Source: an uncultured bacterium
Lineage (GTDB): Bacteria; GCA-001730085
NCBI GenBank assembly: GCA_964565945.1
Contig: CAZMGY010000019.1
Coordinates: forward strand, 30,001 to 62,000
Direction of reading: 5' to 3'
Length of the DNA stretch: 32,000 bases
Shown in pieces: positions 9,727 through 21,325 of this stretch. Made by a program: the position numbers and the translations under genes. Under the pieces are notes generated by a model, which did not search any database, was not told where the DNA came from, and worked only from the letters and a program-made list of their open reading frames with translations. Each line of letters opens with the position of its first letter. The first letter of the stretch is position 1.

Positions 9727-9759
9727 CATACTTAATTAAATTACTAGGGATTAAGTATG
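9727..9759. promoter_or_regulatory. perfect 10-bp inverted repeat (candidate operator or start-codon-sequestering hairpin)
   Basis: CATACTTAAT (9727-9736), 13 nt, ATTAAGTATG (9750-9759). The right arm contains the rrf2 ATG (9757-9759), and the repeat starts 1 nt after the -10 hexamer. Confidence 0.4.
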
Positions 9760-10188
9760 AGATTGTCAGCCAAAATTGAATATTCGCTTAAAGCTATCAT
9801 GGCTTTGGCTCAGCTGTATGCTTCACAGAAACCTTTGAGTATGTCGAAAATTGCTGAGAAGCAAGGAGTTTCGAGTAAATTTTTGCTGCAATTAATGATA
9901 CGCATGAAGAATGCTAAAATAGTGACCAGTGTGCGTGGGGCGTCTGGGGGATATTATTTGCTCAAATCACCAGCCGAAATTTCGGTGGGAGAGGTGGTGG
10001 AGGCTGTTGACAGCACCGTGACAACCACGAGTTTGAAGCAAGAGCATTCGTTAAATATCGAAGAGAACGCCATCGTTCATTTTTGGGATAGGCTTAATGA
10101 AGGTGTTAAGGTTTGTTTAGAGCAGACGACGATTGAAGATCTGTTAAAAGATACTCAACAACAGGGCGTTTTGGTTTACTCTATTTAG
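9757..10188 (+). CDS. Rrf2-family transcriptional regulator, cluster-less (CymR-like)
   Basis: MRLSAKIEYSLKAIMALA... winged-helix N-terminus and RGASGGYYL motif. The three-Cys Fe-S ligand segment of IscR/NsrR is absent (only one Cys in the protein). Confidence 0.85.
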   Translation: MRLSAKIEYSLKAIMALAQLYASQKPLSMSKIAEKQGVSSKFLLQLMIRMKNAKIVTSVRGASGGYYLLKSPAEISVGEVVEAVDSTVTTTSLKQEHSLNIEENAIVHFWDRLNEGVKVCLEQTTIEDLLKDTQQQGVLVYSI

Positions 10189-10225: not shown

Positions 10226-10444
10226 ATGGATTCGCGTAAGAAATCAATTGCTAAGACATTGACTTGGCGAGTAATTGCTATATTTATTACAATGATAGCT
10301 GTTTATATCTACAACAAAAATATTAAGGAGTCAGTTGTAGTTAGCTTAATGGCGAATAGTGTGAAGATGGTTTTGTATTATTTGCATGAACGCGTGTGGA
10401 ACAATGTGGGATTTGGTCGTAAACGTCCAGACTATGAGATTTAA
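10226..10444 (+). CDS. DUF2061 small membrane protein
   Basis: 72 aa. KTLTWRVIAIFITMIAVYIY... and YYLHERVWN match the DUF2061 pattern as I recall it. Confidence 0.6.
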   Translation: MDSRKKSIAKTLTWRVIAIFITMIAVYIYNKNIKESVVVSLMANSVKMVLYYLHERVWNNVGFGRKRPDYEI

Positions 10445-10459: not shown

Positions 10460-11380
10460 ATGGCTAAGATAGCACAAGATATGACCGAACTTGTTGGAGG
10501 GACACCTCTGGTACGATTGAATCGTTTGTCTGATGGTCATGCCACAGTTCTTGCGAAATTGGAGTTTTTTAATCCTGCAGGGTCTGTGAAAGATCGTATT
10601 GGCTTTTATATGTTGCGTGTCGCTGCCGACGAAGGTTTGATCAGAGAAGGTTCATTGATTGTTGAACCGACAAGTGGTAACACAGGCATTGCTTTAGCGT
10701 GGGTGGCGGCAGTCAAAGGTTATCGTCTGATTTTAACGATGCCAGAATCGATGAGTCGCGAGCGTGTGGCTATGTTGGAGGCCTTAGGTGCGGAAGTGCG
10801 ACTAACGCCAGCCCACTTGGGCATGTCGGGAGCGATTGAAGAGGCTCAAGAGATTTTGAAGGATAATCCTGGAGCTTTTATGCCTCAGCAGTTTAGCAAT
10901 GCTAACAACCCAGACATTCATCGTAAAACCACTGCCGAAGAGGTGTGGAACGATACGGATGGTGAGGTAGACATTTTTGTGGCAGGTGTTGGAACCGGAG
11001 GAACGATTACGGGTGTGGGTGAGGTTCTTAAGGATCGTAAGTCCGATGTGAAAATTGTGGCAGTGGAGCCAGATGATTCCCCTGTGTTGTCTGGTGGAGA
11101 ACCTGGACCGCATATAATTCAAGGGATTGGCGCTGGTTTTGTTCCAGATAACCTTAATCGTGACATACTTGATCAGATATTTCGTGTGACGAATGAGCAG
11201 GCCAAAGAGACGGTGGTCGCTTTGGCACGCAAAGAAGGTATTTTTTCTGGGATTTCGAGTGGAGCCAATGTGTATGCAGCTTTGCAGTTGGCGCAGCTAC
11301 CAGAGAATAAAGGCAAGACAATTGTTGTGATTGTGTGCGACTTAGGGGATCGTTACTTGAGTACTCAAGTATTTGAGTAA
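10460..11380 (+). CDS. cysK: cysteine synthase A (O-acetylserine sulfhydrylase)
   Basis: [11 protein letters not shown] (PLP Lys), [21 protein letters not shown]. Confidence 0.92.
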
Positions 11381-11401: not shown

Positions 11402-11617
11402 ATGGACATATCGATCAATGGCAAGACAAAGAGTTTTGAAGAAGCAAGTTTGACAGTGACCGAATTATTTGAAAAAGAGAACGTCCAAATGCCTGAAATG
11501 GTGTCCCTTGAAGTCAACGGGGAATTTTTGGATCGAGAGGCTTTTGAGGCCACCATTGTGAAGGATGGGGATAAAGTCGAGTTTTTGTATTTTATGGGTG
11601 GCGGGAATCTAAAGTAA
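11402..11617 (+). CDS. ThiS/MoaD-like ubiquitin-fold sulfur carrier protein with masked C-terminus (HcyS/CysO-like)
   Basis: 71 aa. The pattern MDISINGK...LEVNGEFLDRE...VKDGDKVEFLYFMGGG is typical of ThiS. The diglycine is followed by the extra residues NLK. AGGAG SD upstream. Confidence 0.75.
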   Translation: MDISINGKTKSFEEASLTVTELFEKENVQMPEMVSLEVNGEFLDREAFEATIVKDGDKVEFLYFMGGGNLK

Positions 11618-11664: not shown

Positions 11665-11746
11665 CAAGGCAGGACATTAAGTTGATGGACAAGCAACAAA
11701 GTTGATCCTGCTTACGAAGTGGAAGGGCTATGAGGAGAAAAGAATC

Positions 11747-12991
11747 ATGTCGGATTATAATTTTCAAACACAACAAATTCACGCGCCAGTCGATCAACGC
11801 AAACGCTCAGGGGAAACAACATCAGGTCCTGCGCAGTCATCAGCTTTTGAGCATGAACTAGCCGAGGATATTCAGGCCGTTTTTGGCCAGCATCAATTTG
11901 GTTATATTTATTCCCGAATTGCCAATCCTACGGTGAATCAGCTTGAGCAAAGAATCACTGCTTTGGAAGATGGTATTGGAACGGTGGCCACATCGTCGGG
12001 AATGGCGGCTGTTAGTAGTGCTCTGATCAATATTCTGCAAACGGGTGATGAATTTATTTCGGGTAATAGTTTGTTTGGAGGGTGTTTTTCTTTGTTCACA
12101 CAGGTGTTTCCTCGCATGGGTATCACTCCTGTATTTGTGGAAGCTTCGGATGTGGATGCGTATGCGGTTGCCATTACACCCAAGACCAAAGCTCTTTTTT
12201 TTGAAGTGATTGGGAATCCTAAAATTGATGTGCCAAATGTGAAGGCGATTGCAGGGGTGGCACATGCTCACGGTCTTCCGTTAATTTTAGATAACACAGT
12301 GGCGACGCCATGGTTGTTTAAGGCTAAGGATTTTGGAGCTGATATTATTGTTCATTCGACCTCCAAATATATTAACGGACATGGTAATGCCATTGGTGGT
12401 TCGATCACCGATTGTGGCACATTTTCTTTTGAAGGTGAAAAGTTTGCCGAGTTTGAACCTTTTTACAAAAAGTTTCGTCACTTAGCCTTTTTGGCTAAGT
12501 TGCGCAAGCAAATAGTGATCAATATGGGGCCTTGTCAGTCGCCTCAAAATGCATTTTTGCAACTGGCGGGCTTGGAAACCTTATCGTTGCGCATGAAGCA
12601 ACATTCGGACAATGCTTTGGCATTGGCTCAGTTTTTGGAAAGCCATAACAAAGTGACTAAGGTAAATTACGTTGGTTTAACTTCTAGCCCGTGGCATGAG
12701 ATCGCTAAAGTGCAATTTCAAGAACACTTTAGTGGCTTACTTAGTTTTGAGCTTAAAGATCGTGAAACGGCTTTTCAGGTGATCAATCATCGCAGTTTTG
12801 CACGTAATTTGCCGAATATTGGCGATGCCAAAACGCTTATGGTTCATCCTGATACAACGATTTATCACGATTATTCAGATGAGGATAAAGCGTCTTTAGG
12901 TGTGACTCCAGGTTTAATCCGTTTGTCGGTGGGATTGGAATCAACTAATGACATTATTGACGATTTGGATAAAGCTTTGCAAAAAGCTTAG
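11747..12991 (+). CDS. metY: O-acetylhomoserine sulfhydrylase
   Basis: ATG 11747 (MSDYNFQTQQIHA) with GAGGAG SD. HSTSKYINGHG carries the PLP lysine of the Cys/Met-metabolism PLP family, with MetY-type length. The ORF-track TTG at 11702 is an upstream extension. Confidence 0.9.
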   Translation: MSDYNFQTQQIHAPVDQRKRSGETTSGPAQSSAFEHELAEDIQAVFGQHQFGYIYSRIANPTVNQLEQRITALEDGIGTVATSSGMAAVSSALINILQTGDEFISGNSLFGGCFSLFTQVFPRMGITPVFVEASDVDAYAVAITPKTKALFFEVIGNPKIDVPNVKAIAGVAHAHGLPLILDNTVATPWLFKAKDFGADIIVHSTSKYINGHGNAIGGSITDCGTFSFEGEKFAEFEPFYKKFRHLAFLAKLRKQIVINMGPCQSPQNAFLQLAGLETLSLRMKQHSDNALALAQFLESHNKVTKVNYVGLTSSPWHEIAKVQFQEHFSGLLSFELKDRETAFQVINHRSFARNLPNIGDAKTLMVHPDTTIYHDYSDEDKASLGVTPGLIRLSVGLESTNDIIDDLDKALQKA

Positions 12992-13912: not shown

Positions 13913-13943
13913 TAAGTTATTGCTAAGATGGCATGAGGTGGAC

Positions 13944-14339
13944 ATGAAGATTAAAAAAGACATTATAGAGAAGATGTTTGCTCAAGCTAAACAAGGCTTG
14001 CCTAATGAGGTTTGTGGTTTTTTAGCTGGGGAAAAGGGTGAAGTGACTAAGCACTACGAGTTAACCAATGTGGATGCATCGCCAGAGCATTTCACTATGG
14101 ATCCTAAAGAGCAGTTTGTGGCGGTGAAGGATATTCGCAACGAGGGCCTAACGCTGATGGCGTGTTATCACAGTCATCCCGAAACACCTGCCCGTCCATC
14201 GGATGAAGATATACGTTTAGCCTACGATCCCAACCTCAGTTATGTGATTATGTCCCTTAAGGATGGACAAAAAAATGTGAAATCTTTTCGTATTCAAGAT
14301 ATGAATGTCGAGCATGAAAAATTAGAAGTAACTGAATAA
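13944..14339 (+). CDS. JAMM/MPN+ metalloprotease (HcyD/Mec/QbsD-like)
   Basis: NEVCGFL (Glu) plus HSHPETPARPSDED, which is the JAMM motif HxHx7Sx2D (14169-14204). ATG 13944 is preferred over the ORF-track TTG at 13920. Confidence 0.85.
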   Translation: MKIKKDIIEKMFAQAKQGLPNEVCGFLAGEKGEVTKHYELTNVDASPEHFTMDPKEQFVAVKDIRNEGLTLMACYHSHPETPARPSDEDIRLAYDPNLSYVIMSLKDGQKNVKSFRIQDMNVEHEKLEVTE

Positions 14340-14352
14340 AGGAGCTTGGATA

Positions 14353-16731
14353 ATGAAGTTTTATGAACTTCCCGATGTTTTAGAAAAAGAAGTGAATATT
14401 TTTGATCAGCAAATCAAAGATTATCAAAAGGGTGATATTGATCCTGTTGGATTTAAAGGGATTCGTGTTGCGCATGGTATTTATGAGCAGCGCAAACCAG
14501 AAACACATATGGTTCGTATTCGCTGTGCTTCTGGAGGGGTGACACCTGCCCAGCTACGGAAAATATCTCAATTGGCCCAAAAGTATGGCTCTGGAGAGAT
14601 GCATGTCACGACACGCCAAGAGATGCAGCTTCATTATGTTGACTTAAACGATGTGATTACGGTGTACAACGAACTTCGTTCTGTGGGTTTATCTTCTCGT
14701 GGTGGTGGTGGAAATACAGTGCGCAACATACTGGCTTCCTATGATTCAGGCGTGACCACAGATGAAGTTTTTGACGTGGCTCCTTATGCGATCGAGCTGA
14801 CCACTCGCATGATTAACGAAGCCGATTCTTGGAATTTACCTCGTAAGTTCAAAATTGCTTTTTCTAATAACGATTATGATCGTTCTCGTGCGGCGGTGAC
14901 TTGTTTAGGTTTTATTGCTAAAAAGCAAGGTGAGCAAAAAGGTTTTAAGGTTTATTGTGCTGGAGGCCAAGGATCTAAGCCAATGTTGGGTCAGGTTTTG
15001 TTTGATTTTGTTGAACATGACAAAGTTTATCACATTACTAAAGCGATTAAGATCATGTTTGATAAGTACGGAAATCGTCGCCAACGTAGCAAGGCTAAGT
15101 TAAAGTTTTTGTGGGATAAGTTAGGCAAGGAAGAGTTTCTGAAGAAGTTTCACGAGGAGTATGATGAGCTTGTCAAGGATATGTCTCTTGCGTTAGACCT
15201 GAAGCCTATTGGCAATGAAGCGCAGGTGAAAGATGGATATGAACCTGAGTTAGTTTTTGGGGAGAGCTATAAGCGTTGGAAAAAATGTTATGTGAAGGCT
15301 CAAAAACAAGATGGTCTTGTGATGATTAAAGTTCCTTTGAAGCTCGGTGATATTGAAGGGTCAGATGGTGAGAGAATTGCTGATGAGCTCGAGAACTTTG
15401 GTGATAATGTTCTACGTTTTTCTGTGGATCAAAATGTTCATTTTCGTAATATTCCCGAAGCATATTTAGGTAACATTTATAACTTGATTCAGCTGATTGA
15501 TTCCTTATCGAGTGATCCAGAAATGTTTGGCCAAATGATTGCTTGTACTGGGGCCGATACTTGTAAATTAGGTATTTGTTTGCCTCGCGGTGTGACGCCA
15601 AAAATTCAAGATCTATTGCGCGATAGCGAATTAGATATTGATGCCCTATCGCATGTCAAAATTCATATTTCTGGATGTCCCAACACTTGTGGATGTCACC
15701 ATGTGGCAGATCTTGGCTTTTTTGGAAAAGTGATGCGTCAAGGCAAGGATATGATGCCTGCTTACAATGTGTTAGCGGGTGCTATTTCTGACGAGGGGAA
15801 AACACGTTATGCCTTAAAGGTTGATGAGATAGCGGCCAAAGATTTGCCAGTCTTTGTGAAAGAGTTTTTTGCCGTTTATCTTGCTAAGAAAGATACATAT
15901 GCAACGTTTACCGAATACATTGATGCCGAGGGGCAAGATGATATTAAGGCTGTGTGCGAGCAATTTCGTACTTTGCCTAGCAAAGATGAGAATGAAGATT
16001 ACTATTTCGATTGGGGTTCCGAAGAACCGTTCACTCTATTGAAAGGTCAAAAAGCCGAGTGTTCTGCTGGTATGTTCGACATGATTAATGTGGACAACAA
16101 GATGGTTAAAGAAGCCCAAGTGCACTTTGAAGCTACTGAAGATAATCAAGTGCGGATGGAAGATTTATACCAGATGATGTTTTCGACATCGCGCATGCTT
16201 TTGGTCACTCGGGGCATCGAGTCTAAAACAGATGAGCAAGTGTTTGAGGACTTTATTCAGCACTTTATCAAAACCGATCTGATTGCCGAGTCTTTTACGG
16301 ATATTGTTCTTGTGGCTAAGGACAAAAAAGCCGAAGAGCTTCTTGCGCATCAAGATAAAGTGATCAGTTTGGTGGAAGCTGTTCGGGAGTTGTATAAAAA
16401 TATGGATGATTCTCTACGCTTTTTGGACAAAGAAGGCAATATTTCAGGCGAATCTTTCAATGCTAAGAAAAATGATGATGCTTCTGCAGATAAACAAGAT
16501 AGCACGTCAGCTGAACGCTTTAAAGACTTGCGTGGTGTGGGGTGTCCGATGAACTTTGTGAAAGTTAAAATTGAGATGGCAAGCATGAAATCGGGTGAAA
16601 AGATTGCCGTATTTTTGGATGATGGAGCTCCTGTTGAGAATGTTCCCAGTTCGGTGCGCAACGAAGGTCATACGATTGTGGTTTTGGAGCAACAAGGCAG
16701 CCACTGGATGCTTGTGATTCAAAAAGCGTAA
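14353..16731 (+). CDS. sir: assimilatory ferredoxin-type sulfite reductase hemoprotein fused to an unassigned helical region and a C-terminal TusA/SirA-like domain
   Basis: NIR_SIR repeats (RIRCASGGVTPAQLRKISQLAQKYG...TTRQEMQLH). Siroheme/[4Fe-4S] cysteines CTGADTC and CPNTCGC. The last ~72 aa (DLRGVGCPMNFVKVK...) resemble TusA, with the Cys codon at 16543-16545. Confidence 0.85.
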   Translation: MKFYELPDVLEKEVNIFDQQIKDYQKGDIDPVGFKGIRVAHGIYEQRKPETHMVRIRCASGGVTPAQLRKISQLAQKYGSGEMHVTTRQEMQLHYVDLNDVITVYNELRSVGLSSRGGGGNTVRNILASYDSGVTTDEVFDVAPYAIELTTRMINEADSWNLPRKFKIAFSNNDYDRSRAAVTCLGFIAKKQGEQKGFKVYCAGGQGSKPMLGQVLFDFVEHDKVYHITKAIKIMFDKYGNRRQRSKAKLKFLWDKLGKEEFLKKFHEEYDELVKDMSLALDLKPIGNEAQVKDGYEPELVFGESYKRWKKCYVKAQKQDGLVMIKVPLKLGDIEGSDGERIADELENFGDNVLRFSVDQNVHFRNIPEAYLGNIYNLIQLIDSLSSDPEMFGQMIACTGADTCKLGICLPRGVTPKIQDLLRDSELDIDALSHVKIHISGCPNTCGCHHVADLGFFGKVMRQGKDMMPAYNVLAGAISDEGKTRYALKVDEIAAKDLPVFVKEFFAVYLAKKDTYATFTEYIDAEGQDDIKAVCEQFRTLPSKDENEDYYFDWGSEEPFTLLKGQKAECSAGMFDMINVDNKMVKEAQVHFEATEDNQVRMEDLYQMMFSTSRMLLVTRGIESKTDEQVFEDFIQHFIKTDLIAESFTDIVLVAKDKKAEELLAHQDKVISLVEAVRELYKNMDDSLRFLDKEGNISGESFNAKKNDDASADKQDSTSAERFKDLRGVGCPMNFVKVKIEMASMKSGEKIAVFLDDGAPVENVPSSVRNEGHTIVVLEQQGSHWMLVIQKA

Positions 16732-16743
16732 GGTAACAGAGAG

Positions 16744-17451
16744 ATGAGTGAGCAATTGCAGGCCTATAGAGAACAGGTTCAAGGTTTAGAGGCCAAGGTC
16801 ATTGTGGCATGGGCGTTCGAAACCTTTGGTGTTAAGGATTTGGTTTTGGCTTCGAGTTTGGGGGCAGAAGACCAAGTGTTGACGGACATGGTCTGTTCGC
16901 AAGAGCCTGAAGCGAGAGTGTTCACTTTGGATACGGGACGTTTGTTTCAAGAATCTTATAATGTGATGCAAACCTCGATGAATAGATATCACCTCAAGTA
17001 TGAGGTTTATGCGCCTGAGGCTGATGAAATTATTGATTTGGTTCGGGATAAAGGTCCTAATTTATTTTATGATAGTGTTATGGATCGTAAACAGTGTTGC
17101 TATGTGCGCAAGGTTCGTCCTTTGCAGAAGGTTTTAGGCACGGCCAAAGCTTGGTTAACTGGTTTGCGATCTGAGCAGTCGGTGACGCGTGATGCTCTTG
17201 AAGTGGTTGAGGGGGATGACAACTTTGGTCTTTATAAAATCAATCCCTTGGCGGCTTGGTCCGAAGCAGACATTTGGTCCTACATTAAAGATAAGGATGT
17301 TCCTTACAATGCTTTACATGAGCAAGGATTTTTGAGCATTGGTTGTGTTCCGTGCACACGTGTGGTTAAGGACGGTGAAGATGTTCGCGCTGGTCGTTGG
17401 TGGTGGGAAGACCCTAAACACAAAGAATGTGGCTTGCATGCCAAAAAATAA
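16744..17451 (+). CDS. cysH: adenylylsulfate (APS)/PAPS reductase, Fe-S-cluster type
   Basis: PAPS_reduct fold and C-terminal KECGLH. Carries the extra CC (17095-17100) and CVPC (17344-17355) cysteine pairs characteristic of [4Fe-4S] APS reductases. Confidence 0.9.
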
Positions 17452-17465
17452 AGAAAGATAAAGCT

Positions 17466-18347
17466 ATGACAGAGTTAGATAAATTAGAAGCCCAAGGGAT
17501 TTATATATTCCGTGAAGCGTATCGCAATTTTAAAAATCTAGCCATGCTATGGTCAATCGGAAAAGATAGTACCGTTTTGCTATGGTTAGCTCGTAAGGCA
17601 TTTGCGGGGCATGTGCCGTTTCCTTTTGTTCATATTGATACTTCTTATAAGGTTCCTGCCATGATTGCTTATCGTGATCAATTGGCACGTAAATGGAAAC
17701 TAAACATGGTTTATGGACAAAATCAAGAAGCCTTAAAGCAAAAGCAAACGTTTCCTGATGGTGCGATCGATCGATTGGCTTGTTGCAAAGCCTTGAAGAG
17801 TGAAGCTCTTAAGCACACCCTTTCTGGAGAGTGGACACGTTTTCGCATGAATCATGACAAAGGTGAATACGAAGTTGATCAGAACACTGAACCCTACACT
17901 GGTGTGATTGTGGGTGTACGCTCTGACGAAGAAGGTACGCGTTCCAAAGAAAGATATTTTTCGCCACGTGATCATCAAAATGAATGGGATATTGCTAATC
18001 AACCACCTGAGCTTTGGAATCAATTTAAGACAGATTTTGCTCCAGGAACGCATGTGCGGGTGCATCCCTTGCTTGATTGGACAGAGCTTAATATTTGGGA
18101 ATACATTGAACGTGAAAATATTCCGATTATTGATTTATACTTTGACCGAGGGGAGGGGACACGTTATCGTTCTTTAGGCTGTATGCCGTGTACATTTCCT
18201 GTCGAGTCGACAGCCAAGAATGTCAAGGATATTATTGAAGAATTACGCAGTGGAAAGTTTGCTAACATTGCTGAACGTTCAGGTCGCGCGCAAGATAGAG
18301 AGGATGGCGGAACACTTGAGACACTAAGAAAAGATGGGTATATGTAA
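17466..18347 (+). CDS. cysD: sulfate adenylyltransferase subunit 2
   Basis: ATG 17466 ([22 protein letters not shown]...), [16 protein letters not shown]-loop and the C-terminal ...[14 protein letters not shown] signature. Confidence 0.92.
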
Positions 18348-18348
18348 A

Positions 18349-20157
18349 ATGAGCACAGATGTATTGAATAACGAACAAATGAATATTGTGGTGGTTGGTC
18401 ACGTGGATCATGGAAAAAGTACTGTAATTGGCCGTTTGATGGCGGATACAAACTCTTTGCCACAGGGTAAGCTTGAACAAGTGAAATTTAATTGTGAGCG
18501 AAATTCCAAGCCCTTTGAATATGCATTTCTTTTGGATGCACTCAAGGATGAGCAAGCTCAAGGGATTACGATTGATTCGGCACGTTGTTTTTTTAAGACC
18601 AACAAAAGGCATTACATCATTATTGATGCCCCTGGGCATAGCGAGTTTTTGAAAAATATGATCACAGGAGCCACTCGTGCCGAGGCAGCGTTATTGATTA
18701 TTGATGCTCACGAAGGCGTGCAAGAAAACTCACGTCGCCATGGTTATATGCTATCGATGTTAGGTATCAAACAAATTGCGATTTGTGTGAATAAAATGGA
18801 TTTAGTCGATTACTCTCAAGAGGTTTTCGACAATATCCAAAAAGAGTATTCCGAATTTCTTAAGGAAATCAATATAACACCTAAGTTGTTTCTTCCGATT
18901 AGTGCTCGAAAAGGCGATAATATTGTATCGTTGTCGGATAATATACCTTGGTTTAAGGGTATGCATGTCTTAGAAACGATGGATGACTTCAAAAAAGAGC
19001 TTGATGAGAAAGATAAATCTTTTCGTTTTCCTTTGCAAGATATTTATAAATTTACCGAAAATAGGGATGATCGTCGTATTTTTGTGGGACGCATCGAAAC
19101 AGGCGAGATTCGCAAGGGTGACAAGGTTGTGTTTTTACCTTCGAGTAAAACCTCGACGATTCGAGCTGTGGAGGGGTTTCATATGCCCGATGATAGCTAC
19201 GCCTATTCGGGACAATCAACGGGGTTTACCTTAGAAACACAGATCTATGTGAAACCAGGTGAAATCATGTGCAAGGCTGGGGAAGAATTACCTAAAATCG
19301 GAGCACGTTTTCGTGCCAATATTTTTTGGTTAGGTCGCCAGCCGATGGTGAAGCAAAAACAGTACAAGCTTAAGATTGGAACATCGCAAATGCCAGTTTG
19401 GCTCGAGGGCATTCATCATATTTTGGATGCTTCGGAATTGTCGACGGTTCAAAATAAACAAAAGATTGATCGCCATGATGTGGGGGATTGTATTTTGCAA
19501 ACCTACAAGCCGATTGCTTTTGACCTAACTGGTGATATTGCAGCTACTAGTCGCTTTGTGATTGTCGATGATTACGAAATTACTGGTGGAGGGATTATCG
19601 TTGAGGATTTGGGGACCGAAAATAAGCGCTTACAAGATTACATTGATCGCCGTGAGCAAAATTGGGCGCGTAGTGCGATTACGCCTGAAAAACGTCGTTC
19701 TCGCTATGGACATGCAGCGACGCTTGTTTTGTTCACAGGTCCTCGTGGAGTGGGTAAGCAGCCTATGGCCGGTAAATTGGAAGAAAAGCTTTTTGAATGT
19801 AATTTTTTTACCTATTATTTAGGTTTAGCGAACACTTTGGAGCATTTGACCAGTCGTACAGGGATGGACAAAGATCGGGTGGGTTTATTAACTCAACTGG
19901 GAGAAATATCGCACATATTCACCGATGCGGGCCTTATTTTGATCACAACTATCTCCGAAATGGACGATTATGAATTGCAAATGTTGCGCACCTTGAATCA
20001 CCCCAGTGATTTGGTGGTGGTTAATGTAGGAGATAATCTGTTTTCTTCAGAGAAAGTGGATCTGGATCTGCCCGAACAAGCCGATCCAGAGATCTATGTG
20101 CAACAGGTGGTTCAATTCTTGCAACAAAGAAACGTAATCACGGATTATATGATTTAA
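18349..20157 (+). CDS. cysN: sulfate adenylyltransferase subunit 1 (GTPase) fused to a degenerate APS-kinase-like domain
   Basis: ATG 18349 lies 1 nt after the cysD stop. [14 protein letters not shown] and NKMD GTPase motifs. The C-terminal ~170 aa align to CysC, but the P-loop is GPRGVGKQ (19738-19761) and the LDGD motif is LGLA. Confidence 0.9.
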
Positions 20158-20188: not shown

Positions 20189-20218
20189 CGTTATCCCACG
20201 ACTTGATCAGTGGGATCC
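20189..20218 (-). repeat. GC-rich palindromic element, copy d (inverted orientation)
   Basis: The reverse complement is GGATCCCACTGATCAAGTCGTGGGATAACG, with a 7-bp stem ATCCCAC/GTGGGAT. Lies in the cysN-mnmA spacer and overlaps the spurious GTG at 20210. Confidence 0.7.
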
Positions 20219-20248
20219 AGGGAGTTTAAAATATTGAATTTAGTTAAC

Positions 20249-21325
20249 ATGGATAGCAATAAAACAGAAGTTGTGTTAGTTGCTCTTAGCGGAGGAGTGG
20301 ACTCAGCTGTTGCAGCGCGCCTTTTGATGCAAGAGCATGAGACTGTGATTGGGGTGTCTCATCGCCATTGGCCAGAATCGAACTGTTGTTCGACCGCATG
20401 TTTGGATCGTTCTGCTGCTCAATGTATCGATATGGGTATTCCTTATTATCCGCTTGATTGTATGGTCGAATTCGCTCAGGCGATTGTAGATGACTTTGTG
20501 GCCATCTACCAAAGAGGTCAAACGCCGAATCCATGTGTCTTGTGCAATCAAACCATTCGCTTTGATTTGATGATTCAGAAGTTTTTTGAACAACATCCCG
20601 ATTATATCGGGCGTGATTATCGGATTGCGACTGGTCATTATGCCAAAGTTGAGAAGATTGAGGGGATTTATCGTCTTAAACGTGGGGTTGATCTGGACAA
20701 AGACCAATCGTATATGCTTTATCGCTTGTCTTCTGAGCAGTTGCAACATTGTTTGTTCCCTTTGGGTAGTCTATACAAAACGCAAGTGCGTGAAAAAGCA
20801 GAGCGCTGGAACTTACAATCGGCCAAGCAAAGTGAGAGTCAAGATATTTGCTTTGTGACTGACACCTACCAAACTTTTTTGGATCAGTACACGGGCCAGC
20901 AACAGAGTCCCGGTGATTTTGTTGATCAGAAGGGGAAGGTGTTGGGACAACATCGTGGCGTGGCTTATTATACCCGTGGTCAGCGTAAAGGTTTGGGCTT
21001 AAGTGATGGTCCTTGGTATGTGGTGTACACGGATGTGACCACGAACCAAGTAGTTTTGGGGGCGCGTGAAGATTTGGCTACGTCCTCCTTTAGGATTCAT
21101 ACAACGCGTTGGAGTGATCCTTATGTTCACTTTCCATTAGAGGCGACTGTACAGTTGCGTTATCATGCTCAGCCTGTTCCTGTTCTGGTGGAACAAATAG
21201 AGGAAGATAATTATCGCTGCCAGCTTAAGGATTTGTCCTATGATGTGAGTCCGGGTCAGTCGGCTGTGACTTATCAAGAGGATTACGTGGTGGGGGGAGG
21301 ATTGATTGCCTATGACCCAGTTTAA
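20249..21325 (+). CDS. mnmA: tRNA 2-thiouridine(34) synthase
   Basis: ATG 20249 (MDSNKTEVVLVALSGGVDSAV PP-loop). Catalytic Cys contexts NPCVLCN and SQDICF. Confidence 0.9.
   Translation: MDSNKTEVVLVALSGGVDSAVAARLLMQEHETVIGVSHRHWPESNCCSTACLDRSAAQCIDMGIPYYPLDCMVEFAQAIVDDFVAIYQRGQTPNPCVLCNQTIRFDLMIQKFFEQHPDYIGRDYRIATGHYAKVEKIEGIYRLKRGVDLDKDQSYMLYRLSSEQLQHCLFPLGSLYKTQVREKAERWNLQSAKQSESQDICFVTDTYQTFLDQYTGQQQSPGDFVDQKGKVLGQHRGVAYYTRGQRKGLGLSDGPWYVVYTDVTTNQVVLGAREDLATSSFRIHTTRWSDPYVHFPLEATVQLRYHAQPVPVLVEQIEEDNYRCQLKDLSYDVSPGQSAVTYQEDYVVGGGLIAYDPV

Follow-up and report, generated by a model that had tools for sequence, protein, structure and literature searches.

How is the sulfur made by a sulfite reductase passed to a ThiS-like carrier protein when the E1 enzyme that adenylates the carrier bears no rhodanese domain? 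This question is raised by a 32,000-nucleotide stretch of DNA from an uncultured bacterium (GenBank assembly GCA_964565945.1, contig CAZMGY010000019.1, positions 30,001 to 62,000 of the forward strand), which is referred to here as the window. An uninterrupted open reading frame (ORF; 14353-16731, plus strand) encodes a 792 amino acid (aa) protein composed of a siroheme sulfite reductase core, a helical domain and a C-terminal TusA-type domain, and lies in a cluster with genes for a ThiS-like carrier, an E1, a JAMM protease and sulfate assimilation. The gene is best explained as that of an assimilatory siroheme sulfite reductase of the ferredoxin type, belonging to an operon that assimilates sulfur through a protein thiocarboxylate, and the evidence supports the C-terminal domain being a working sulfurtransferase that is tied to the carrier system. 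It is further proposed, with a probability of about one half, that two cysteines of the extension, Cys570 and Cys731, form a tethered relay through which sulfur from the reductase reaches the adenylated carrier. The synthesis of cysteine and methionine by way of protein thiocarboxylates is established; the transfer of sulfur from sulfite to the carrier in systems with a rhodanese-less E1 has so far only been predicted. The candidate relay described here sits on the reductase itself, and the fusion occurs in at least 595 species genomes (confirmed loci in a scan with one genome per species), including gut Bacteroidales, Margulisbacteria, Spirochaetes, Planctomycetota and Desulfobacterales.

The reductase core contains two pairs of NIR_SIR_ferr and NIR_SIR repeats (Pfam E 1.3e-39 and 9.7e-31) and its best solved relative is NirA of M. 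tuberculosis (1zj8, E 4e-40). The Cx5C and Cx3C ligand set of the [4Fe-4S]-siroheme centre is complete, with Cys398, Cys404, Cys442 and Cys446. The NCBIfam equivalog models of the reductase core all score under their cut-offs, and the company of CysH, CysD, CysN, CysK and MetY in the cluster favours sulfite rather than nitrite as the substrate. An earlier interpretation of this DNA, made by a model from the letters alone and called here the sequence-only reading, had assigned the first ~560 aa to a ferredoxin-type NirA/Sir and had observed that the ORF runs on well past it; the two Pfam repeat pairs and the two cysteine motifs, found at the places claimed, agree with the former, and the alignment with 1zj8 agrees with the latter. 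It stops at aa 530 of the query, two residues short of the end of the 1zj8 chain, so that about 260 residues of the product are additional. The connector that leads from the core into this extension is predicted with low confidence when modelled without the core (predicted local distance difference test score, pLDDT, 51-77).

Conservation was assessed by aligning the window protein with 56 full-length proteins found by a profile of the helical domain, mutually no more than 50% identical (57 sequences in all). A count of the cysteines in 79 related genome loci was rejected as circular, since these loci had been retrieved with both cysteine motifs as patterns, and the alignment of profile hits took its place.

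The C-terminal domain matches PF01206 over aa 725-791 (E 4.5e-19, 68.5 bits against a cut-off of 28.6 bits), and its sequence relatives in the PDB are TM0983, YedF and TusA. An AlphaFold2 model of aa 541-792 (model 1; 55 homologues, mean pLDDT 85) gives it the beta-alpha-beta-alpha-beta-beta order of the TusA two-layer sandwich. In a Foldseek search of the PDB E. coli TusA (1dcj, 3lvj) comes first with target-normalised template modelling (TM) scores of 0.84-0.88 and root mean square deviations of 1.5-1.9 Å, followed by the TusA-like YeeD and other SirA-like proteins. The TusA-like domain that the sequence-only reading had recognised in the terminal ~72 residues is therefore upheld by both its profile match and its predicted fold. 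TusA-family proteins carry persulfide sulfur on the cysteine of their signature motif, which in the window protein corresponds to Cys731, located in the segment just ahead of helix 1 of the domain. Cys731 is found in 51 of the 57 aligned proteins, the exceptions being five that lack the TusA domain altogether and one, P0334, in which a rhodanese domain stands in its place; across the diverse orthologous fusions that do bear TusA it is invariant. The motif itself is distinctive, as had been remarked of the CPMN of the window protein, which departs from the canonical CPxP: E. coli TusA (CPEP), TM0983 (CPVP) and YedF (CPYP) all have proline at the +3 position, where the window protein has asparagine. 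Family-wide the motif reads CPxN[F/Y], with proline at +1 in 52/52 and asparagine at +3 in 51/52 rows (counted over 52, the row of the rhodanese variant being misaligned in this block of columns). The NCBIfam equivalog models all fall under their cut-offs (YedF 35-38 bits against 79, TsuB/YeeD 23-25 against 147.5, TusA 18-21 against 78). Between the TusA domain and the preceding helical domain lies a linker that is predicted to be disordered (pLDDT under 50 at aa 701-717 of model 1), and the distance separating the two cysteine motifs ranges from 138 to 166 aa among loci.

The helical domain could not be assigned to a family by sequence, with no Pfam or NCBIfam model matching aa ~560-720 at E <= 0.1 and no relative returned by a sequence search of the PDB. 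The sequence-only reading had described an unrecognised helical segment at nucleotides ~16051-16512; the absence of a recognised family stands, while its extent has to be reduced, the folded part covering only 16057-16422 and the remainder being linker. Conserved motifs of the domain include ECSAGxFDxIxxD, SRMLLVTRG and LYxxMDDSLRF. When the domain was modelled alone (model 2; predicted TM score 0.74) and compared with the PDB using Foldseek, the best matches were the HEPN proteins 2hsb, 1ufb and 1wol, followed by HepT toxins and the C-terminal helical domain of AadA. These matches are marginal (E 0.025-0.5 and TM 0.43-0.57, the best having E 0.025 and TM 0.47/0.57, at 9-14% identity). The Rx4-6H motif is absent from the domain, which has no conserved histidine and whose conserved arginines sit in RMLLVTRG, and no Pfam HEPN profile matches it at E <= 0.1. 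On these grounds the domain was not classed as HEPN and is better called a HEPN-like helical bundle.

The domain opens with Cys570, which is as strictly conserved as the four cofactor-ligand cysteines of the core and is retained even in the TusA-less and rhodanese-bearing variants. Beyond the ligands, Cys570 and Cys731, no cysteine of the protein is conserved in the 57-sequence alignment. The first long helix begins at aa 570 in model 2 and at aa 562 in model 1, which places Cys570 at or near its N-terminus, a position that by analogy with TusA, thioredoxin and rhodanese would be typical of a reactive thiolate. The sequence-only reading had quoted the motif containing ECSAG without flagging Cys570, which no other feature of the extension matches in conservation.

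A profile of the helical domain alone, searched without an index against 1.84 billion cluster representatives, returned 315 hits at E <= 0.001. Among the best 150 of these, the full-length proteins place the domain at approximately aa 540-700 of ~780 aa, and of the 79 hits in which 200 or more residues precede the domain, 75 carry the reductase GCPNxC as a simple pattern, the remaining four being similar in size (547-792 aa). Since the domain was met only on reductase-type proteins in the full-length sequences among these best 150 of the 315 hits, it appears, judging from sequence, to be specific to this sulfite reductase family. A full-length search likewise gave more than 100 proteins of ~780 aa with equal reductase and TusA content and 48-74% identity, from Spirochaetia, Verrucomicrobia, Planctomycetota, Margulisbacteria, Bacteroidales, Actinobacteria and a PVC-group bacterium from Bugula neritina (73%). 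Their database names are either 'sulfite reductase (ferredoxin)' or 'sulfurtransferase TusA family protein', and an identical protein is encoded on one Logan contig. A standalone module composed of the helical and TusA domains, as suggested by the short hits P0046, P0072/P0074 and P0078, was considered and rejected, the P0046 locus being ridden with frameshifts and its operon genes split. On a long-read metagenome contig (L081) the same operon is present with nearly every gene frameshifted, which gives rise to false 'standalone' helical-TusA proteins in the databases.

Naturally occurring variants lack or replace the C-terminal domain. Five of the 57 aligned proteins stop just after the helical domain and contain no TusA. 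Relatives of ~700 aa that are 58-63% identical to the window protein (L080:8001-10100, L082:8001-10142 and L083:4287-6416) likewise keep the helical domain with Cys570 and end before TusA. The three TusA-less proteins that could be placed (P0127, P0129 and P0137) have no ThiS, E1 or JAMM gene within 8 kb (3/3), although they are closely related to one another and therefore count as approximately one observation. In P0334 (L084:1966-4341) the core and the helical domain are unchanged and a rhodanese domain (Pfam E 2.3e-11, aa 691-782) takes the place of TusA. This is the swap that would be expected of a sulfurtransferase domain. P0334 is encoded downstream of an Rrf2 gene on a short contig that has no carrier genes; heavy-metal-binding proteins are encoded nearby.

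The genetic neighbourhood often links the fusion to the carrier system. The window E1 shows a ThiF domain and no rhodanese or any other domain in Pfam and NCBIfam searches of its 267 aa, as the sequence-only reading had assumed. Of the related loci, 41 have the reductase gene flanked by 5 kb or more on each side; E1 and JAMM genes lie within 10 kb in 28 of them, and 26 of those 28 encode a ThiS-like carrier as well, so that the co-occurrence of such fusions with ThiS, E1 and JAMM neighbours is found in the majority of neighbourhoods. The gene order of the window is a common one, recurring in L001, L030, L032, L039, L040, L051, L073 and others, and in all of these MetY clusters with the reductase and the sulfate-activation genes. 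The neighbouring carriers share a terminus: 41 of the 42 recovered end in FLYFMGGG followed by 1-10 variable residues, which makes C-terminal trimming obligatory in this carrier family, the one remaining tblastn hit (L041) having no clean tail. Taken together, the TusA fold, the invariant cysteine, the flexible tether, the rhodanese swap, the linkage to rhodanese-less E1s and the loss of TusA where carrier genes are absent are what supports a sulfurtransferase that serves the carrier.

A role of this kind has a precedent in the literature. Iyer, Burroughs and Aravind 2006 (PMC1779556) described an operon class, 4e, that combines ThiS/MoaD, JAB, E1 and SirA proteins with sulfate assimilation genes, in which the E1 is always without rhodanese and a SirA/TusA protein is always present and predicted to fill the rhodanese role. 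The window cluster fits this description exactly. Both the architecture and the substitution of TusA for rhodanese have thus already been published as a prediction (PMC1779556), and the fusion family is large. What is new here is the invariant Cys570, the confinement of the helical domain to the reductase family, the CPxN motif and the existence of TusA-less and rhodanese-swapped variants, none of which is described in the examined passages of that paper. A search of a paper collection returned nothing on a fusion of the reductase with TusA, on Cys570 or on the helical domain, its other matches being work on TusA in dissimilatory sulfur metabolism. Among the organisms that PMC1779556 names for the operon class is Wolinella succinogenes, whose methionine route through a protein thiocarboxylate (HcyS, HcyF, HcyD, MetY and Sir) was reconstituted by Krishnamoorthy and Begley 2011 (cited in PMC5764234 and PMC8191291). 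Like the Wolinella pathway, the window encodes a ThiS-like carrier with a GG-plus-tail end, a JAMM protein, a rhodanese-less E1, MetY, a sulfite reductase and sulfate-activation genes, but in addition it contains a CysK-like enzyme, an Rrf2 regulator, MnmA and a HemC-SUMT-HemD fusion. Campylobacterales relatives share the C-terminal arrangement of reductase, helical domain and TusA, the matches being Campylobacteraceae and Helicobacter fragments from metagenome-assembled genomes.

The relay is proposed to solve a chemical problem that direct transfer would leave. The reductase yields sulfide (S2-) and TusA carries sulfane sulfur, and therefore an oxidising equivalent is needed, which Cys570 could supply. 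All chemical steps that follow, and the pairing of Cys570 with Cys731, are inferred. The JAMM protease would first trim the GGG-NLK tail of the carrier, which would then be adenylated by the E1. Sulfide made at the siroheme would open a Cys570-Cys731 disulfide to give a Cys731 persulfide and a free Cys570 thiol, whereupon the TusA domain would swing to the E1-carrier complex and its persulfide would attack the acyl-adenylate to form an acyl-disulfide. The thiol of Cys570 would then resolve the acyl-disulfide, freeing the carrier thiocarboxylate and restoring the Cys570-Cys731 disulfide, so that the cycle would be redox-neutral. Resolution of an acyl-disulfide by a second thiol is an accepted route in ThiF/ThiS-ThiI and in rhodanese-fused E1s (MOCS3/Uba4, MoeZ). 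Finally, MetY and probably the CysK-like enzyme would use the thiocarboxylate to make homocysteine and cysteine, and JAMM would free the amino acid from the carrier.

Like E. coli TusA (PF01206; 1dcj, 3lvj), the window domain has the same fold with the cysteine just before helix 1, but it is fused to a reductase, carries CPxN[F/Y] instead of CPxP and would obtain its sulfur from the reductase and not from a cysteine desulfurase. As in the rhodanese-fused E1s (MoeZ/MoeBR, MOCS3/Uba4) and the CysO-CysM-Mec+ system of M. tuberculosis, a carrier of the ThiS/MoaD type would be adenylated by an E1 and receive its sulfur from a tethered domain that bears a persulfide, and a JAMM protease and a pyridoxal phosphate (PLP) enzyme would use the thiocarboxylate. 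The difference is that the sulfurtransferase domain is here on the reductase and not on the E1, and is of the TusA type, the rhodanese of P0334 being the exception. Were the relay correct, sulfide would be channelled without release of a toxic and volatile intermediate, and were it false, the retention of the module in genomes without adjacent carrier genes would call for another explanation. Either way Cys570, Cys731 and the unannotated helical domain, with the TusA-less and rhodanese-swapped variants as natural controls, make the old prediction directly testable.

Several observations weigh against the relay. In 13 of the 41 TusA-bearing loci there is no ThiS, E1 or JAMM gene within 10 kb, the reductase gene standing alone or preceding siroheme-synthesis genes, and the TusA domain with both cysteines is present in 8 of these 13, that is, wherever the motif scan recovered the cysteines. 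Coupling of the reductase to the carrier is therefore not obligatory. Unless such genomes encode the carrier system elsewhere, the module must serve some use, or at least be kept, in the absence of a neighbouring carrier. The helical domain with Cys570 persists where TusA is absent, which implies a role for Cys570 that does not require Cys731. The three TusA-less relatives without carrier genes are too close to one another to be independent evidence. The structural models span the C-terminal part only, and the distances between Cys570, Cys731 and the siroheme fall outside them. Free bisulfide is reportedly competent against carrier acyl-adenylates in vitro, as in the Wolinella pathway. The sequence-only reading had envisaged a closed channel from sulfite to protein thiocarboxylate, and this idea survives in part: the fold, the conservation of the cysteine, the 28 of 41 neighbourhoods, the TusA-less relatives without carrier genes and the rhodanese exchange speak for it, but it had been anticipated in print (PMC1779556), the coupling is not obligatory as the 13 carrier-less loci demonstrate, and its chemistry was incomplete, the need for an oxidant and Cys570 having been missed. 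In three of the carrier-less loci, from Bacteroidales and Brevinematales (L054:10727-13716, L070:10726-12157 and L010:10781-12700), siroheme-synthesis genes are located directly after the reductase-TusA gene.

One alternative, considered somewhat unlikely, is that sulfur reaches the carrier as sulfide by free diffusion. Bisulfide released by the reductase would attack the carrier acyl-adenylate directly, as in the scheme reported for Wolinella, which gives the C-terminal module no role, and the module would lie off the thiocarboxylate pathway, where it would buffer or sequester sulfide, feed other acceptors (tRNA thiolation, Fe-S clusters, molybdenum cofactor) or regulate the enzyme. The 13 carrier-less loci and the survival of the helical domain with Cys570 in the absence of TusA are consistent with such a function, as is the presence in the window cluster of MnmA, which in E. 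coli is a client of the TusA pathway and is fed through TusA. The linkage to MnmA is seen, however, in only 3 of 80 loci (the window, L001 and L077, among the window and 79 related loci) and may therefore be incidental. Free diffusion also leaves unexplained why the operon E1s are consistently rhodanese-less while a TusA domain is supplied, and why the TusA-less relatives are those without carrier genes.

The two cysteines could also be viewed as a built-in sulfur-capture device, either running a redox-neutral disulfide/persulfide cycle that would turn nascent sulfide into a carrier thiocarboxylate with no free sulfide escaping from the enzyme, or intercepting zero-valent sulfur at the siroheme in the manner of DsrC; this broader notion is unlikely. 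In its DsrC-like version, which is itself very doubtful, the two cysteines would attack partly reduced siroheme-bound sulfur as DsrC does with DsrAB, and the enzyme would deliver protein-bound zero-valent sulfur (a persulfide or trisulfide) after four electrons, not sulfide after six. If this were true, a protein persulfide would be the real product of this assimilatory sulfite reductase. The analogy with DsrAB-DsrC rests on a siroheme sulfite reductase combined with two conserved, here invariant, cysteines on a flexibly tethered C-terminal arm, and it would explain the loading of a persulfide carrier without a separate oxidant; the rhodanese swap is likewise compatible with sulfane-sulfur chemistry. 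Unlike DsrC, however, the extension gave no DsrC/TusE profile match in Pfam and no such fold match in Foldseek against the PDB, and is not homologous to DsrC, the core is a typical assimilatory NirA/Sir in an assimilatory gene context, the TusA-less variants keep only one cysteine of the two, and access of a cysteine to the siroheme is not seen in the models, which cover only the C-terminal part.

The last alternative, which is improbable, gives the TusA or rhodanese domain a role on the input side, where it would deal with oxidised sulfur ahead of the reductase, by binding or cleaving thiosulfate like TsuB/YeeD or by taking the S-sulfocysteine intermediate of the adjacent CysH and passing sulfite to the active site. 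In its favour, rhodaneses, of which the swapped variant carries a domain, split thiosulfate into persulfide and sulfite, the best NCBIfam matches are YedF and TsuB/YeeD rather than TusA proper, the YeeE-YeeD complexes 8j4c and 8k1r rank near the top of the fold matches, and CysH with its ECGLH tail is encoded by the very next gene. Against it, the YedF and YeeD scores are weak and under cut-off, no thiosulfate transporter gene (YeeE/TsuA) was recognised among the profiled genes of the cluster, and the linkage to rhodanese-less E1s is better explained by a role on the output side.

The features of the reductase gene and of the cluster around it are collected in Table 1.

Table 1. Features of the sulfite reductase gene and its gene cluster, in window coordinates
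Feature	Position	Strand	Evidence or remark
Rrf2-family regulator, head of cluster	9757..10188	+	Pfam Rrf2 E 1e-29; same place in related loci
DUF2061 membrane protein, 72 aa, between Rrf2 and CysK-like genes	10226-10444		
Cysteine synthase-like PLP enzyme (CysK/CysM type)	10460..11380	+	Pfam PALP E 2e-77
ThiS-like sulfur carrier, end FLYFMGGG-NLK	11402..11617	+	Pfam ThiS E 8e-12; TIGR01683
O-acetylhomoserine sulfhydrylase, MetY type	11702..12991	+	Pfam Cys_Met_Meta_PP E 3e-113; TIGR01326
E1 adenylyltransferase (ThiF/MoeB family), 267 aa	13109..13912	+	ThiF domain aa 11-246; NCBIfam MoeB, UbaA, ThiF
JAMM metalloprotease, HSHx7Sx2D	13920..14339	+	Pfam Prok-JAB E 8e-26
Siroheme/[4Fe-4S] sulfite reductase core, ferredoxin-type NirA/Sir, aa 1-~536	14353..15960	+	Pfam; 1zj8 match
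CTGADTC, cluster/siroheme ligands Cys398 and Cys404, aa 398-404	15544..15564	+	both kept in 57/57
CPNTCGC, ligands Cys442 and Cys446, aa 442-448	15676..15696	+	both kept in 57/57; Cys448 not conserved
Connector with conserved YYFDWG motif (aa 550-555)	15961..16056	+	alignment consensus
Reductase-family-specific (apparent) helical domain, aa 569-690	16057..16422	+	pLDDT 92-99; no Pfam/NCBIfam match
Cys570 codon, ECSAG motif	16060..16062	+	kept in 57/57 representatives
Predicted disordered linker, ~30 aa (aa ~691-722), variable in length and composition	16423..16518	+	pLDDT < 50
TusA-type domain, aa 723-792	16519..16728	+	PF01206; Foldseek vs 1dcj, 3lvj
Cys731 codon, RGVGCPMNF (LRGVGCPMN = aa 726-734)	16543..16545	+	Cys in 51/51 TusA-bearing homologues
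CysH, ECGLH tail, next gene after reductase	16744-17451	+	Pfam PAPS_reduct
CysD, sulfate activation	17427-18347	+	Pfam
CysN with partial APS-kinase domain	18334-20157	+	Pfam GTP_EFTU, APS_kinase
MnmA, tRNA 2-thiouridylase	20210-21325		Pfam
HemC, uroporphyrinogen methyltransferase (SUMT) and HemD fusion, 648 aa	21306..23252	+	Pfam Porphobil_deam, TP_methylase, HEM4

In the translation of the JAMM gene the HxHx7Sx2D motif reads HSHPETPARPSDED. The small DUF2061 gene is also found downstream of the reductase in L081, which suggests that its association with the cluster is recurrent. The APS-kinase match at the C-terminus of CysN is weak and partial, at 29 bits over profile positions 3-87 of 152, so that the pathway may run by way of either APS or PAPS. 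The HemC-SUMT-HemD ORF, whose start overlaps the end of MnmA, is a siroheme-precursor module that closes the sulfur cluster.

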